Source of the DNA: Okamejei kenojei
Lineage: Eukaryota
Direction: 5' to 3'
Assembly (NCBI GenBank): GCA_035221665.1
Contig: CM069132.1
Span: forward strand, 61,876,001-61,939,483
Length of the DNA stretch: 63,483 nucleotides
The notes below the pieces were generated by a model, which saw only the letters and a list, made by a program, of their open reading frames with translations, was not told the DNA's origin and ran no database searches. Each line of letters starts with the position of its first letter. Positions within the stretch are counted from its first letter, which is position 1. A program made the position numbers and the translations under genes. Of the stretch, positions 5,627 through 31,838 are shown piece by piece.

Positions 5627-8600
5627 GTCTCAGTTTTAAATTGTTCGAGACATGCTTACGGAAGTCTATTTAAGCAGGCAATTGAAAAATATGGTTATTA
5701 ATATTTTTGTCATTCCAACCATTAAAAACAGTTATGCGTCTATTTCTGTTATTACTCTGCACTTCATTCAAACTTATTGTTCACTGCTGACATCCTTTGC
5801 TTTCTGGCTGGATTTCCGTTTCTCTTTCATTCAAATGCGAGTGTAAACGATGTCTTTAAATTTAAGTGTTAGACTCGCTATCTTTTAAAAAAAGAAATAA
5901 AGCATTATATCACAAACTATCCAGCAATAAATATCAGTGTTTCAATAGCAATTCCGTGGTGACAATTAACTAGATTAGTTAAATTTGTAGATTTAGAGGA
6001 TGATAAAATTTGGTGAGGTTTGATATCCTTGATTTTTAGATTTCTTGTCTGCGATTGATAGACGTTAGTTTACATTTTGATTATACACTGTGCAAAAAGT
6101 TAGTGTTGCATGGCTTTCTAATATTACCGAACAGTGTTTCTGTTTCAACGTGTTTTATTCTTTAAGTGTCCAATATAAAGAAATCAAGCCCTTTAATGCA
6201 GCGAATTTTCAGTTTTATCCATTTACCATCATTTTTTACAGTTGGTGCATTTTATTTTTAAATATCTTTACCTAAAAATGTAAGAAATAGAAATCATTTT
6301 GAAAGTAATGTGATTCCGAAGTGGTTGCTTACAACATTATTGAATACATATACAGTTAAAGGGTAACATTCTTTTCAGATTTATCTCGGAGATATAAAAT
6401 AATGATCTATTTTCAACTTCTCCAGCAATCTTAGCGAATTACAGAGAATTGTTATTACTTCTTTTTGAAAAAGCTATGTATGTTAAATCAGCGCCGTAGA
6501 TGGCAAATATTTGCCCTGGCCCCTCTACGAAAAGATTTCACTGCGCACATACAATGGCCAATACACTTGAAGGGCGAGGAGTTTTTGTTCGAAGTTCACG
6601 AAGTGTTGGATAGATTTTGTGACTGCAAACAAGAACTACATAATTATAAGCAATCTCACTCGGTGGTGTAGGTGGCGAGCATACGAGTCTTCTTCTTGGA
6701 ACTTTAGCCGGAAAACAGGGTGAAACGCACTCAGTCTGGCCTTCAGTCTTAAGTTCACGATCTAGGCTAACAACGAGCCCGAGCTCTGAGTGGGCACAGC
6801 CTGCTCAGTTTAGACATTGAAATCGCTTATTTACTTAAGAAGCACTACTTGCTCCATTGCAATCTATGCTCGTCCTTTTATAACAGACTGGACTATCTAT
6901 TATTTACCTCGTTTGTTGCAGCGTTGTAAGACGTGTGTTTATTGCTTACGCGTTGATGGAGAAATGTAGAAATCTTGCAGTACCCACGGTCGACATAGCT
7001 TGGCGCAAATAAATGTGTCCTCATTATTCTTTCTTTTGCCAAATGGAACGCATTAATGGCCATTACAAGTATTGTATAACTATGCACTTTCTAAAGCTAT
7101 TTCTTTAATTTAACTTTCCCCCCAACCATATTTCTAAAATAGGCGATAAAGCTATTTAATCTCCCCAACCTCCTCGGCATTAAACACATTTCTTAACTGT
7201 TACCAATGTCGCAATTAACAGTCACGTACACACCAGAATCTAGAAAACAAACTTATTTCCCTCAAATCCTTGCTGCTTCAATTACTTCCTGGTGTGGGCT
7301 TTTAAACATTTCACATGAGACTCACAGCTCCTCGACCCATTCCTATCCATAAAGTTGAGAAAGACCTGCAGTATCTTAGAAACAGGAGAAATCAATCCAC
7401 CATCCCCATTACAGTTTTACTGGGAAATTGGGTTATAGACGTTTAAACCTTTCCAAAAATGCACCAATAAAATTATCCAAATATGGTATCAATTTATTAA
7501 GCAATGAAACATTTGCAAAAAAAAACCAGATAAATATCATGCCTCCAACACATAAATGCGCCGCTTGTTAGCATTGCTGTACAGTAGCCTGAACCTTTAT
7601 ATATGAGACTCTGGCAGAGATGGTAATTGTTATTTTCACCCATTAAATCTTTGTCTGCTCCCATGATCATACGTGTCATTGGCTCAGAGGGATTGCAAAC
7701 GGGAATATTTTCAAAATTTTCGATAAAGAACATTCAGGTTTTTATATGATTTTTGGACGGCCGTGATAATTCTAAACAGTCGTTTGTGCTTAAATACAAG
7801 CATGCATAAGGAATCCTCCGAGACGGCCCTTTAGCAAACACGGTGCGTGTAAAGCCGGCCTTCATATCCCGCTGACTTTAACTGAAACGATATTTTAAAT
7901 AATCTGCTTTAGATTAACAACATTTTCTGAGCTTTAATCCAGCGCCAGAAGTTAAAATAACTGCAAATGGAATAATAGTACAGAGTGGCGGTGGGGAAGT
8001 GGTTGGGGGTGGGGCGGCACGGTTAACATTTTGAGTGCGGCTAAAAGATGGCTCGCAGAAAAACACAGTAATGTTAGAGATGTAATATTACATCCAAATC
8101 TAAAGACGACATTTACGGCGGCATTGCTTACTGCACTTTATTACGGAGATGGCCGATCAAAATACATACAACATGACCGACACACAGAATAGTTTCGTAT
8201 TCAGATTCCCATTGAGACATATTGAATAAATATGCCACAAATACACTGTTAAAGCCTCCCTTGACTTGGATCACAAGGGATTTATGTGTGTGCGTATGTC
8301 TGTGTGTGCGTGTATTTGGAGGGGGCTCTTATCGTTGTTGCGTTACTTTCTTTCTGCACTGATATTATGATAATAGCTGTAGATTGAGTATAATTATCTT
8401 CCACCTTAAATTCTGGATTTAAAAAGTTCACCAATCGAAGGCCCCGCTTTCTTCCATGGAAAAAGGTAAAGCATTTTCACCCCTCTGGTTTCATTTCTAA
8501 GTTATCTTTGGATGGGATGGAGTGGCATACTCTGGAGGAGGCTTCTATAGCGCGCTTAAAAAAAACTCGACCCGATTGTAGTTGAGATACTTGTAAATTT

Positions 8601-14154: not shown

Positions 14155-14238
14155 AACTGATGTGTGATTTAGGTAGTTTCATGTTGTTGGGGCTAAAGTC
14201 TAACTCTACAACACGAGACTGTCTGAATTACTGCAGTT
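14155..14238 (+). ncRNA. mir196: mir-196 precursor hairpin (HoxA-linked locus; mature 5p at 14170-14191)
   Basis: TAGGTAGTTTCATGTTGTTGGG at 14170-14191 matches mature miR-196. The complementary 3' arm is CTACAACACGAGACTGTCTGA, with an AACTG...CAGTT basal stem. Canonical position between Hox10 and Hox9. Confidence 0.96.
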
Positions 14239-21175: not shown

Positions 21176-21417
21176 ATAACCCTTCCGCGAACTGGCTGCA
21201 CGCAAGATCAACCAGAAAAAAACGCTGCCCTTACACCAAACATCAGACATTGGAGCTGGAAAAGGAATTCTTGTTTAACATGTACCTCACAAGAGACCGC
21301 AGATACGAGGTCGCCCGGGTTCTCAATCTCACCGAACGGCAAGTTAAAATCTGGTTTCAGAATAGAAGAATGAAGATGAAAAAAATTAATAAGGAACGAC
21401 CTAAAGATGACCGGTGA
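21176..21417 (+). CDS. hoxa9: Hox-A9 exon 2 (homeodomain)
   Basis: Acceptor TTTCAG ending 21175; read manually as [79 protein letters not shown]. Spliced CDS 783 nt, 260 aa. Confidence 0.96.
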
Positions 21418-21646: not shown

Positions 21647-22267
21647 ACATGAAAACTACCTTCTCTTAATCCACCGATATTCTATGCGGACAGTAATTCA
21701 GTAATACTGTATTCGTTTAATATTTACTTGTTTTACATGCAGCAAACGAGGCTGCCTATATACTTGAATCCATGTGTCTGTTGTGATTATCTCTGTGACT
21801 GGGCCTCTGTGCTTAGGCGGTGTCTGAGTAAAGATCGTGTAAACAAACAAAAGAAAAATCTCAATTCAACTCAGGATGTTTAATATAAAACTAACAGGCT
21901 ATGTGTTGGATATGAAATGTTATTTTCGTGGTGAACTTGGGACATATATTGTATTATTTTCACTGTGAATTAACGTAAAATCGCCAGGCTTTATGCTGTC
22001 TTTGTGAGACTGAGTAACGGCCTTGCCTGGGTGCATGACGTTTGTGTTGTTCTTCAGCAAATATATGAAACTGAATTGCATAGAATGCTAATATAAGTTT
22101 TATTTAAAAGAGCGGCGCTGAACATACTGCTACACGATACTATTGTCTATTGTGATGAAAGCACGAATAAAGTTCTCAGACACTTTGTATTTATCGGTGT
22201 TGTGGTGCAAAGAAAAGTATAAGATTTGGTTTAAAAACTACCTATATGTATAACTAGTAACTACCTA
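21647..22267 (+). promoter_or_regulatory. miR-196 target sites in the HoxA9 3' UTR
   Basis: Extended site ACATGAAAACTACCT (21647-21661) and ACTACCTA 8mers at 22237 and 22260. Confidence 0.75.
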
Positions 22268-23879
22268 TGTTTTGTGTGTAAATGTTACTCTTAAAACAGT
22301 CTAGATGCATTTATGCTATGGAAAAAAAACAATATTGTCAATAAATGTAATGTGTACAATACAAGGAAAATATCTGGGTGCAATAGAAAGAACCGATACC
22401 ACTAATGTGTTTTAAATAGGGTTTCTGTAAACCTGCCGAGCTAACACGTTTAAACTTGTGTACACGTTTGAAATGAATACCTCGTGTCATATTGACCAAA
22501 CTATACTGTTTGTAATGAAATGTCATTTTATTTGTTGTCTAATAAAATATATGTTTCACTACATAAAACATGTGATTTCGCTTCTCACAATTCAATTTAT
22601 GGAAATGCATTGCACGGTATTTCGTCCAGGACTACGTTTAATAAATTCCGCCACAATTTCAGAATTTTGAAACGCACCATACTCAACACTAATATTTTCA
22701 AGATCTTCATTGCCCTCTTTACAGATGGTTTCGATTTCAATTCTTAAGATCAACCCCTAAGTTTTGCAACAGCCGGATAACGACATAAATATAATAATAC
22801 GTATACATTTTTTTAAAATCCCATTCATTACTAAAATGTAATCTCTAATGCCAACACAACTATTCTATACCTTTCTCAAATTCTGACATATAAAATGTGG
22901 TGTACCGCAATGTAATCCATTGTTTGGATTTTTCCAAATAAACATGGGATGTTTAGTTGAAAACTAAAACTAACGTTGGAGGTTTCTGGAATGATTCATA
23001 AACCATGAAGTAGTAACTTTGTTTTAGAAGCGGATTTGATGACGCAGAGTCTGAATACAGTTGAGCTTAACGCCCAGTTATCACCAATTAACCCGAGACC
23101 CTGCAAAAGTGCACTAACAACTTGTATTTGTCGCTTGGCCATGCTCCAATGTGGCTGGCTATTTATAAGATTTGTTGTGGGCTACCTATGCAAGAAATGC
23201 AGTACTTTTCTCCAAGTGGGAATGGATAACCTTGATCCAGTTGCCCGTGAAAAAAAACTAGAACGTTATGGGATTTCACCATATTATAATGAAGTGAATT
23301 ATTATATATACATTTTTTAAAAAGCCTGGCACAAATCCTTGCCGCCATTTCTTAAACAAATCGCACAAGAGAGTCGGAGCCTTTGAAAGCAAACAAAGTT
23401 AAATAATCTTAGGCATTTCACCACGAACAAAAAGTACACGATTTGACCATTTATGTAACTTCCTTTCTAACTGTAAGATCCCTGGTAACTTTTTAAAACC
23501 CCGAAGACAGTTTGGATGGATTTAGTGAGATTCAAATGATTTGGAATTTGGACGGAAAGGCCCGAGTAGCTGCAAGTCTTGGCAGTGGCTGTCGTTAGTA
23601 AAATTCAGAGTGGTGTACCGCAATAAAAGAAAATGACTGCTGTAAGCGTTTATGGGGTGTAAAACGCTGGAGGTTAAGGGGCGAAGTACATAAACACGAC
23701 ACTGACGATCGAAGTATTCTCCGCGTCTGGAGCAAACGCGTGAATAGCGTTGCAGTAATTGCAATATTTTTTATTATAATATTAAAAGTGGCGGTAAATT
23801 GAAATTATTTTATTTTTAAATGTTCAGTCTGGAGGGCTATAATGATGCGACGCCCTCTGTTGTTGCATGTGGAACTTCA

Positions 23880-26481: not shown

Positions 26482-27206
26482 ATTGAGAAGTTGTTAGTAA
26501 TTGAATATTTATCGATTTTTCCATCGTGAAAAATTAAATATGCCGATTCTGCTGAGAATATAACAACAACATTGCTTATACGCAAAAATGTATAAACCAC
26601 ATTTTTATTTCTACAATATTCGGTAATGTATGGAGTTACTGCCACGATACTTTTGTATAGTCGCATTGAAATGTATTTCGCTTTCTTTGTTTCGGTACTT
26701 TCTCCAATTCGATCTGTGAAACAACGATGCTGCGTAAAATGCATCCACTGACTCCTGGTAATAAAAGAAAATAAGAATTTAACGTTATTGCTACACAAAC
26801 AATATCAGTGTTTTATTAGCGAATACACAATTTTATTAGATACTACAATACAAGCGGACTTAATATGCAGGACAGAGTATTATAATTTTAGTCAAATATA
26901 TGAACGTGCATCTAGAGCAACGCGGTCGCAATGTTCAAAGGGCAACAGTACGGAGAAACTAGAATTCCTGGGAAGTGGGGAAAGAAAGTACCAAATGTAA
27001 GTGGAAAAACAGTTTTGGCAATTTCCTGCTGCATATTATTTGGAAATTGATGTATGCAACTTTGAGAAGTGTCGGTGACCTTTGCACATTTTGACTTAAG
27101 TTAAGAGCGTATTTTTTTTTGTTTTTATTGAAGTAGGATTACTTGGACGAATTGCTGATTTTATTCCGTTGAATTCCATTAGTTTTTATTCCATTACCCC
27201 CTTCCT

Positions 27207-28200
27207 TTGACTCGTGTTTTCGTCGGAGAGCTGTTAGTTCCAATCTAAGCAAAATCGGTAGCGGTAACCTATTTTCAGCGAGCAATGTTTAAACTTCGAA
27301 AATATGACTGTTTTACACGTTATGTGTTATATATTCTATGCTCGACAATCCCATGCTATGTATTTCCCTAACTAATTTTAATTAAACTTATTTTTTTTAA
27401 TTTTTAAACAATCAACTGGCATTCCGTCGCACTGCTAAAATCGTTTACAGCTCGACTTCGGATTTATTTTAAATCACTTGTAACGTATGAAAAGTTTAGA
27501 AGACAAAGCCCTCCTTCACGCGTTTCGGAGATATTGACATTAGCACGCCGTTTCGTTTTAGGTATGTACAGGAAACATGGAGATTGCCGACAGCTTTATA
27601 GGCTGGAGGTATATTAACTAAAGATTGTTCTTTTAACGAGCGAGGGACGAATGCAGTCCAATAATCTCCCGACAAAACATCATCGCTGGTGGAAAGCCTT
27701 TCTGCATAAAACTACCACTGCCTCTAGCCGAAGAGACCCAGAGTTCAAAAGAAAATCGCAGTTAATAATATGAGCTTATACTTCCTTAAGGGTTTCAGAC
27801 GTAAATGCAGAAACATATTTTTTTGCAATAAGCCTTTACTTTAAACGTACCAGGTGCATCGTTGTGTATCTGCTGTAAATACAGTGGCCTGGGTTTCCTT
27901 GCCTACGTGTAACATCGAACAAATATAACTCTGAATCTTGTGCATTAAGGCAACAATTCCGCTAGGAAGTGACCAAAGCCAAAGTAGAGTAACTGTCGCA
28001 ATTGCAAGGAAACTGTTTTCGGAGACACCTTCCATGATCTACTGAGAGAAAGGAGACAGAGTAAAAAGTTGTAAAACAAAAGGAGGAAATGATGCCGGGT
28101 TCAATCCCCTGCGGGGATCTAGTCAGATTACCTAGCAACTCCAAGAGGTTTCCACGGAATAGCGGTAGCATTGAAACGGCAGAGGAAGTGCGGTAGTTTA
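27207..28200 (+). pseudogene. Highly degenerate paralog-group-8 Hox pseudogene (psi-HoxA8): exon 1 ~27207-27800, exon 2 from ~27960
   Basis: Colinear frameshifted remnants of Hox8 motifs: MSSYFV-like (27207-27224), YDC (27303), SHAMYFP (27349), HGD-ADSF-G (27576), VQ*-PD-K-SS (27656), EETQSS (27730), SL-FP followed by GTAAAT (27801). Homeobox remnants follow: RQTYS (27976), ELEKEFLF (28000), ERQVK/QNRRMKW (28053-28091). The 3' end is approximate. Confidence 0.7.
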
Positions 28201-29121
28201 CAAAATGAAGTTATGTATTTCAGTAAATCAATATACAAACATGACTGGATCTATAAAAAGATGGAGAGCTCCTAGCAGGAGCTGATTTCTCAGTGATGCC
28301 CCGCCCAATCCCCTTGCAGCAATACTGCGGTTTATACCTCTCCCATTTCTAGTCCTCACTAAAACCACGCAGATTATCCTGTAATCTAGAGATTAGATGA
28401 ACCCTAATCAGTAATTCAGTAAGGTTGCAGTACCACAGGTCCCCAGTCCCTACCTCATTCTCACCACCCTCCAGATTCGTACAGGATTTCATATTGCTGA
28501 AATAACAGCAAACTCGCGCAGGGGGTGTGAGGGACAATGGAAGAGCGCTTGTCTTTTAATTGAAACCATTTAATCGTTTTTTTAAAGCAAATTGCAGAAA
28601 GGACTTGCTAATGTTGATTCAAAGTGTCCATCGATAATTTTCTGTGCACGAATCTTGCTTCTTTCTATGGACAAACCAGCATGTCTGCTTTTTTTTGTAT
28701 CAAAGAAAACCTTTCATTACATTTCCAAATTCATCGTGCATCTCATATTCAAAAGCGTTGGGAACATACCTGCGCTGTGAAAATTTCCACATGCGTGTGG
28801 GGGATTGACTTGTCAAGAACTTGTTAGAAGATACTTACTTTTGGAAAGTTCCACAACCCATCCTTATTAATAATGTAATGTTTTATATGATTCTTGCATA
28901 ATTTATTTTGAAAATAGTCGAATAACATGATATTTACCACCTGTGATGTGAGATGCTATTGGGTGACGGGATCACATGGTCGGGTCACGTGAATAGAAAT
29001 AAGTCGGGCCGAAGGAAAATGGGTGTTTGGTGTAAATCGGGGGTGTAATGCTGCCATATATCACGCTATCTCGTAAAACCGACACTGAAGAGTCTCGGCC
29101 AACAAATCACCAGACAAAATT

Positions 29122-29515
29122 ATGAGTTCGTCGTATTATGTGAATGCTCTTTTTCCCAAATATACGGCGGGGACATCCGTTTTCCAGAACACGAGTGGCT
29201 TTACAGAAGCAACTTCTTGCGCCTTTGCTGCGAACTCACAAAGATCGAGCTATGGAGCGGGCGCGAGCGCCTTCCCAACCCCGATGGCCGGGCTGTACAA
29301 TGTTAACAGTGCAATCTATCACGGCCCTTCCATGTACAACACAGGTTATAACCTAAATTCAGATTCCTACAACCTGCGCTGCTCTGCCTTAGACCAGAAC
29401 ATTCCAGTACTTTGCAGCGACCTGAGCAAACAAGGTTGCGAAAAATTGGATCAGACAAACGTGCACCCTCAAGCAGAGAGCAATTTCCGGATTTACCCCT
29501 GGATGAGGAATGCAG
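29122..29515 (+). CDS. hoxa7: Homeobox protein Hox-A7, exon 1
   Basis: MSSSYYVNALFPKYTAGTSVFQN (A7-type N-terminus), hexapeptide NFRIYPWMR, donor GCAG|GTATGG at 29515/29516. Confidence 0.96.
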
Positions 29516-30829: not shown

Positions 30830-31838
30830 ACTACCTAGTCACAATCGTGGACTATTAGAACGATGCAGTGCAGTGGCACTCATTATACTACCTATATGTT
30901 TCAATAATCTTCTGAAATAAATACTATCTTTACTTTCTCTGATTTGGTTTTAATAAAAAAAATGCAAAATCTTTATCGGCAATAGTAAAACAATTATTAG
31001 GAAATGGGTTCAGAATTAAAGTGAAAGCCAATGGATTTAGACCATTTTCCCGGTCGTCAAATATTTTCCCTAGCTAATTTGACGGTCTCTTGTTGCAATA
31101 AATGCATTAATGGGAATATAGTTCTTAATCCATGCACTCCACGTAAATAAGAGACTGGGATTCGACTCTGGGTCTCTAATACTGTAGCGATAAGAAAAAC
31201 ATGAGCCTAAAAAAACAAGCTGTAGCCATTGTTTTCTGTAACTCACTTACCACTATGTGATATAAGATATATCTCATGCACTGAGCCATTGATCAAACTT
31301 ATTTCATCCTCATTAATTCACATTCTGAACGCATTTAAAACATTTCTGTACATTGTTCACAAAATAAGAACGTTATGATTTTAGAAGTTTCTTTCAAATC
31401 CAATGAAAAACCTCCGAGCCAGCCTATCACCTATTATTAGTAATGATAGAAGACTAAGTCATGAGTAAAATACTTTATTTTTGCTCAATTCCTCATTTTT
31501 TATCCACATTCTTCATTGTGTTTTGAGTATGTCTTTTATTTCATATATGTATCGTCCCAATAAGGATATAAAGCAATGTTCTGTTTTCACTTGGCAAATA
31601 AATGTAACTACCTAAACCACAATAGTGGACATCTTGCACGTTTATGGAAACTACCTAAATGTTTTAATTTAAAATTCGTTTCTAGACAGAGAATGTTGTT
31701 CTGGGGGCTTGAATTCCCGCCCTTCTTATAACAGCACCATAATATGAGAGTAAAATAGTGAAATATATTCCGATGTGTGTATTTTAATGAGGTGCGTATG
31801 TAGTCACTTTATTACAGGAAAATAGTGAATACTACCTA
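30830..31838 (+). promoter_or_regulatory. Five miR-196 8mer target sites (ACTACCTA) in the HoxA7 3' UTR
   Basis: Sites start at 30830, 30887, 31607, 31650 and 31831; distal AATAAA at 31991-31996. Confidence 0.85.

Follow-up and report, generated by a model that had tools for sequence, protein, structure and literature searches.

Possible, very old traces of a HoxA8 pseudogene in the HoxA cluster of the skate Okamejei kenojei

The window analyzed here, a stretch of 63,483 nucleotides from the skate Okamejei kenojei (contig CM069132.1, positions 61,876,001 to 61,939,483), contains the HoxA cluster, with HoxA10, HoxA9, HoxA7, HoxA6, HoxA5, and HoxA4 all encoded on the + strand. Exon 1 of HoxA9 was identical to the Amblyraja protein at 180 of 181 amino acids and to that of Leucoraja at 178 of 181, with 156–162 identical residues in sharks and 143 of 180 in Callorhinchus. 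A homeodomain search of the genome returned 76 matches and placed the Hox clusters on C2 (HoxA, containing the window), C31 (HoxB), and C7 (HoxD). A fourth cluster, HoxC, was not apparent among these 76 homeobox matches, of which only part was classified. HoxD5 is present in the genome, as is an intact HoxD14. The sole Rfam match was a mir-196 precursor at 14161–14234, between HoxA10 and HoxA9. Seed matches for miR-196 were clustered, with five lying 3′ of HoxA7 (30830–31831) and three 3′ of HoxA9 (21655–22260).

HoxA9, with its stop codon at 21417, and HoxA7, with its ATG at 29122, are separated by an interval of 7.55 kb in which no gene, no homeobox ORF, and no ATG-started ORF of at least 70 amino acids was found. 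No jawed vertebrate is known to have a functional HoxA8. A first-pass annotation had nevertheless read a still legible, two-exon HoxA8 pseudogene in this interval, and all 12 strings that it quoted are indeed present where it placed them, on the + strand between HoxA9 and HoxA7. Its slot and strand also hold, as the stretch lies in the Hox9–Hox7 gap on the coding strand of the cluster, approximately where the spacing of the HoxB and HoxD clusters puts Hox8. The candidate stretch has stops in all three frames, as would any intergenic DNA, and its GC content (40–44% at 27400–28600 vs. 27–42% upstream) is uninformative beside the HoxA7 promoter. The features discussed below are collected in Table 1.

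Table 1. Candidate remnants, chance-level anchors, and noncoding landmarks in the skate Hox clusters. Positions without a prefix are those of the window; C and L prefixes denote contigs and extracted loci.
Feature	Position	Strand	Evidence or remark
Conserved noncoding element	23586..23678	+	blastn 77% over 95 nt, E 2e-10, to paralog between HoxB9 and HoxB8
5′ anchors of the first-pass annotation (start, YDC, SHAMYFP)	27207..27369	+	chance-level
CHGDPSKFYG patch, Hox8 exon-1-like, candidate remnant	27573..27603	+	8.1 bits; 84/132 controls as good
QQEADLVQYPDCKSS (QQEADL) patch, Hox8 exon-1-like, strongest candidate remnant	27638..27685	+	15.8 bits; 0/132 controls (bounds picked after sight)
EE, hexapeptide, and donor anchors of the first-pass annotation	27729..27806	+	chance-level, without FPWM motif
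RQTYS and ELEKEFLF anchors of the first-pass annotation	27976..28018	+	chance-level
Homeobox-like patch, end of helix 2 and helix 3	28031..28094	+	candidate remnant, not PG8-specific
HoxA7 proximal promoter/5′ leader to ATG	29016..29129	+	blastn: HoxB7, E 1e-37; gene-less HoxD site
HoxD relic of Hox7 promoter/5′ leader	L046:5384-5496 = C7:75130384-75130496		1.1 kb after HoxD8 stop
HoxB8/HoxD8 upstream element	C31:12599555-12599633; C7:75127916-75127997		
HoxA14 remnant, homeobox exon 2 (L062:6682-6770) and exon-3-like piece (7083-7107), 0.3 kb on	C2:61852682-61853107		HoxD14 model
HoxB14 pseudogene candidate, marginal	L067:2135-2219 and 2500-2525 = C31:12502135-12502525		2.5-2.9 kb before HoxB13

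Several noncoding landmarks could be recognized around the interval. For the conserved element in its 5′ half, no counterpart was found between HoxD9 and HoxD8. It contains TTTAT-type Cdx sites and is presumably a Cdx-type enhancer. At the other end of the interval lies the HoxA7 promoter, which a Hox7 promoter model built from the HoxB and HoxD sequences finds at 64–90 bits. The HoxD site used here carries no Hox7 gene: it matches the HoxA7 leader at 70% over 114 nt (E 5e-12 / 3e-13) and ends at the position expected for the ATG. Of the strong matches to 26 promoter queries, it alone had no adjoining living gene. Anchored at the former ATG, the HoxD7 site showed no coding trace (Bayes factor −5.8). 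This relic is likely a retained regulatory element of the lost HoxD7. A search of the accessible literature found no report of it, and older papers may already count it among their paralogous footprints.

The two living Hox8 genes of this genome provide landmarks of their own. HoxB8 and HoxD8 share an 80-nt noncoding element approximately 430 nt upstream of the ATG (70%, 0 of 60 shuffles), and the 3′ UTRs of both contain a near-perfect miR-196 complementary site. Neither was detected between HoxA9 and HoxA7, where 49–72 (upstream element) and 72–88 (miR-196 site) of 100 shuffles scored as high. Near 28670 a possible miR-196 site, and at 26671 a word resembling the promoter, had been picked by eye; neither beat shuffles, and both were discarded.

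Ten anchors of the proposed gene were scored with a model of decayed Hox8. As controls served 132 windows of 2.5 kb taken from the HoxA, HoxB, and HoxD clusters, with repeats masked. Six of the anchors were equalled in all 132 controls: the MSSYFV start (3.4 bits; the controls had 13 equal sites per kb, and the target window itself 34 better ones), RHAVVYGP, which had been read as SHAMYFP (2.4 bits; 18 equal sites per kb), GEEPEH, which had been read as EE (6.6 bits; 1.7 per kb), the hexapeptide PTQMFPWMRP (1.3 bits; 20 per kb), RQTYSRFQ (3.1 bits; 12 per kb), and ELEKEFLF (3.5 bits; 9 per kb). A seventh, YYDC, scored 7.7 bits, was equalled in 81 of the controls, and lies 105 nt out of register. 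The parts of Hox8 that are most conserved, namely the start, hexapeptide, and helix 1, are thus at chance level here. The exon-1 anatomy that had been laid out from start to splice donor is not supported by this comparison: the FPWM motif is gone, and the GTAAAT donor at 27801 is a common hexamer that occurs three times between 26.5 and 29 kb. With the hexapeptide block at 1.3 bits and the splice sites unsupported, the layout of two exons around an intron of approximately 160 nt lacks support as well, and the PG8-type serine read in RQTYS at 27976 is not callable from an anchor of 3.1 bits that every control equals.

Three anchors had their best site within the target window at the place in question: CHGD at 27573, QQEADLVQYPDCKSS at 27638, and helix 3 at 28048. 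The absence of an equal for the QQEADLVQYPDCKSS patch, which spans 15 codons, among the 132 controls is to be read with the knowledge that its bounds were picked after sight. The first-pass annotation had quoted a VQ block of exon 1 at this point; the best exon-1 block begins 18 nt upstream of the place quoted. The patch contains an in-frame stop and a 3-nt insertion, and is identical to HoxD8 at 28 of 45 nt and to HoxB8 at 26 of 45 (58–62%). The CHGD patch lies 65 nt upstream of it, where 66 nt would be expected, so that the two are in register within 1 nt; the linker joining them is a poor match, sharing 13 of 33 nt with HoxB8. In the homeobox-like patch, 46 of 60 aligned nt were shared with HoxD8, at the cost of 13 gap letters, and 37 of 64 with HoxB8. 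Its helix 3 anchor reached 7.8 bits, a score equalled in 62 of the 132 controls. Helix 2, which had been considered deleted, is not wholly so, as a S-H-A-L-like piece aligns at 28031–28045. Directly 3′ of this patch, at 28097–28108, is a word similar to the B box of tRNAs and SINEs.

For tests of the gene as a whole, the probable ancestral coding sequence of each of ten paralog groups was turned into a nucleotide profile HMM that allows for neutral substitution, for indels both short and long, and for an intron. The Hox8 model was made from 13 exon-1 sequences: HoxB8 and HoxD8 of this genome and 11 others (4 B8, 3 D8, and 4 assigned to the C8 type by motif). The test window, 26500–29000, was picked with the claim known, and eight statistics were compared with those of 132 controls and 150 dinucleotide shuffles. 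The controls were non-overlapping, repeat-masked windows from both strands of the three clusters, with genes masked; this set took the place of 256 windows, among which unmasked microsatellite windows had reached 20 bits.

All eight statistics were above the control medians, and 6–34 of the 132 controls and 6–44 of the 150 shuffles scored as high. None of the eight was significant once the number of tests was allowed for. The local score was equalled by 34 and 23 of 132 controls for exon 1, by 6 and 11 for the homeobox (7.8 bits; 6 of 150 shuffles), and by 10 and 11 for the whole gene. The whole-gene Bayes factor was −2.4 bits (15 of 132 controls, 44 of 150 shuffles), and that of a model with block retention −0.6 bits (16 of 132 controls). 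A two-rate model, allowing for rate variation, was equalled by 21, 6, and 10 of 132 controls. The block-retention and two-rate models were introduced after earlier ones had failed, which makes their p-values optimistic. Shuffled and intergenic DNA had been proposed as the yardstick for the first reading, and by that yardstick the stretch came close to ordinary intergenic DNA, with whole-gene scores reached by 6–34 of 132 controls.

A slight preference for paralog group 8, on the other hand, was indicated. In the whole-gene ranking of ten groups, Hox8 came first (3 of 80 shuffles, with a z of only 1.7), followed by PG2 (8 of 80, z 1.3) and PG4 (16 of 80), with the others at 24–74 of 80. For the local gene score with rate variation, Hox8 was equalled by 6 of 132 controls and the other groups by 20–93. 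Frameshift-aware protein alignment, which was uncalibrated, gave a divided answer: HoxB8 exon 1 was placed at 27576–27762 (18 of 50 residues identical), whereas HoxD8 exon 1 and both homeodomains were placed elsewhere. With nhmmer, two-sequence profiles of HoxB8 and HoxD8 run against 263 kb of cluster DNA found nothing in the region at E ≤ 20. A Smith–Waterman DNA alignment (B8 z 0.0, D8 z −1.6) was left unused, since its parameters were too lax and scores grew with length. Metagenome scans for the orthologous locus yielded no vertebrate locus; one match (L068) was a chance match and not a Hox locus.

The position of the candidate was considered separately. Scaling from the HoxD and HoxB clusters predicts a HoxA8 ATG at 27213 and 27330, respectively, and the tryptophan of helix 3 at 27929 and 28091, with the aligned tryptophan near 28066. 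When applied to known genes, however, this heuristic was off by 245–2644 nt in five of five checks, so the close agreement for HoxA8 is partly luck and the slot is merely reasonable. Over the entire 7.55-kb interval, the best exon-1 match ends at 27757 and the best homeobox match at 28091, which keeps the order of the gene; the length-adjusted p-values for exon 1, homeobox, and gene were 0.61, 0.15, and 0.23, respectively. Of three further slots without a gene, that of HoxD6 likewise had its best exon-1 and homeobox matches at gene-like spacing, with scores at chance level.

How much decay these methods can see through was estimated from the living clusters and by simulation. Differences at four-fold-degenerate sites numbered 193 of 295 between HoxA and HoxB, 230 of 350 between HoxA and HoxD, and 155 of 220 between HoxB and HoxD. 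The corresponding K2P distances of 1.6–2.1 are near saturation, suggesting roughly 0.8–1.1 substitutions per site in each lineage since the duplications. Pseudogenes were simulated from a C8-type protein with HKY substitution and chosen indel rates, and scored with a model of B8 and D8. At a decay of 0.2–0.5, all 72 simulated pseudogenes outscored the target on the two whole-gene statistics, the lowest of them reaching −0.1 vs. −2.2 observed (medians 15–192 bits). Among 48 pseudogenes simulated at 0.65–0.8, 16 by the whole-gene score and 20 by the block model were at or below the target, and power was low. A young, well-kept HoxA8 pseudogene, with a decay of at most 0.5 substitutions per site, is thereby excluded under the assumptions of the simulation.

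Hox14 served as a positive control. A paper on the little skate HoxA cluster did not consider a HoxA14 gene to be present in skate (PMC2746220). A remnant of HoxA14 was found 6.3 kb before HoxA13, with 89 nt ungapped, 17.5 bits, and a Bayes factor of +13.9 from the homeobox alone (0 of 132 controls). A second candidate, for HoxB14, was marginal, as its 10.9 bits were matched by 0 of 132 controls and its Bayes factor of +1.0 by 11 of 132. The test windows for Hox14 were placed around the matches, and a scan of 45 kb gave one other high score (17–21 bits, exon-1 model). The clear detection of HoxA14 indicates that younger Hox fossils are within reach of the method; the HoxA8 candidate does not belong to these.

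Pseudogenes that remain in place are a known feature of Hox clusters. Hox14 pseudogenes of cartilaginous fishes have been described (PMC3707753, PMC3509897). Like the chondrichthyan psi-HoxA14 and psi-HoxB14, the HoxA8 candidate would be a dead Hox gene left where it stood, but while the skate HoxA14 remnant is clearly above the controls, the HoxA8 candidate is borderline, with a local score below that of the HoxB14 candidate. Also within the HoxA cluster, a HoxA7 pseudogene has been described in place in bichir (PMC1845163); its loss is lineage-specific and probably far younger than that of HoxA8. Mammals are without a functional HoxA8 (PMC3394115). With HoxB8 and HoxD8 of its own genome, the candidate shares the slot between Hox9 and Hox7, the strand, and the order from exon 1 to homeobox. 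Unlike these genes, it has no ORF, FPWM hexapeptide, confirmed splice sites, upstream element, or miR-196 site.

A highly degenerate paralog-8 pseudogene in the HoxA (HoxM) cluster of the horn shark was reportedly described by Kim et al. in 2000. That report would concern the same slot and the same claim, in which case the horn shark may hold an earlier record of a HoxA8 remnant. A term search found neither 'pseudogene' nor 'Hoxa8' in a paper on the little skate HoxA cluster (PMC2746220) or in a second paper (PMC5054437). No paper pairing HoxA8 with shark was found among those searched, and we do not claim that none exists in print.

Taken together, we would give an even chance to the reading that the stretch is the site at which HoxA8 decayed in place, with 27573–27685 and 28031–28094 as its last alignable traces. 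HoxA8 would then have arisen with the cluster duplications, as HoxB8 and HoxD8 exist in the same genome, and would have been inactivated by about the time that jawed vertebrates arose, or earlier. Its hexapeptide, promoter element, and miR-196 site would be gone, and the sequence would since have accumulated indels and approximately 0.65 or more substitutions per site. Such a remnant would make no protein, and any present role would probably be that of regulatory space upstream of HoxA7. Between remnant and chance, Bayes factors were near 1 and rank tests gave p-values of about 0.05–0.15. Because the data are nearly neutral, the odds of a remnant rest largely on the prior for decay in place: dead Hox genes do stay in place in this genome, as seen for HoxA14 and the HoxD7 promoter relic, which counts for a HoxA8 remnant.

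The strongest competitor, with a probability that we put a little short of even, is that the patches are chance look-alikes in ordinary intergenic DNA or in regulatory DNA upstream of HoxA7, with HoxA8 deleted or decayed past recognition and the apparent order produced by picking motifs with free spacing. This would account for the six of ten anchors found in every control and for the three more found in 62–84 of 132, for whole-gene and block Bayes factors below 1, and for the failure to find the Hox8 promoter element and miR-196 site in the A9–A7 interval. Reverse-strand models and models of other paralogs reached 7–9 bits in the same interval, and the empty slots of HoxD7, HoxD6, and HoxA12 gave p-values of 0.26–0.77, compared with 0.15–0.61 for HoxA8. 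Chance does less well in explaining why Hox8 ranks first of ten groups, why the best exon-1 and homeobox matches fall in the predicted slot and in order, and why the QQEADLVQYPDCKSS patch, without an equal in the controls, is in register with the CHGD patch.

That HoxA8 is a well-kept two-exon pseudogene, lost late within the cartilaginous fishes and with a reconstructable protein, is very improbable: all strings are in order on the right strand and two patches are borderline, but six anchors are at chance level, every simulated pseudogene with a decay of up to 0.5 outscores the target, and the HoxA14 remnant reaches a far clearer Bayes factor on its homeobox alone. Equally improbable is an origin of the homeobox-like patch in another Hox paralog, such as a local Hox7 duplicate, or in a decayed repeat, which helix 3 scores that were alike under PG5, PG7, and PG8 (8.0, 7.2, and 8.1 bits at the same place) and the B-box-like word would fit, as exon-1 and whole-gene scores of PG5, PG6, and PG7 were unremarkable (whole gene 29–43 of 80 shuffles) and a genome search with the stretch at E ≤ 10, in which very common words were skipped, returned only the stretch itself.

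As a trace of decay in place, the stretch is possibly a very old Hox pseudogene of a known kind, a fossil unreadable from the skate genome alone, from which the proposed reconstruction of the lost protein is likewise unsupported. More tentatively, and as a proposal against which we would sooner bet, the skate clusters might keep in-place fossils of several lost genes in graded states, from a clear HoxA14 through a marginal HoxB14 and a HoxA8 at the limit of detection to a HoxD7 reduced to its promoter. Read as a decay clock, they would then put in order the Hox losses that followed the vertebrate genome duplications, and part of HoxA8 exon 1 and the homeobox would be recoverable from chondrichthyan orthologs pooled together.

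The Hox7 promoter relic in the HoxD cluster is the firmer by-product of this analysis, and the HoxA8 remnant would add a detail to the history of Hox clusters in vertebrates rather than a new kind of element. A bound is already usable: under the simulation assumptions, a loss that left a decay of at most 0.5 substitutions per site is excluded. If the remnant is real, HoxA8 was inactivated where it stood instead of being deleted, and its level of decay would date the loss before or near the split between cartilaginous and bony fishes.
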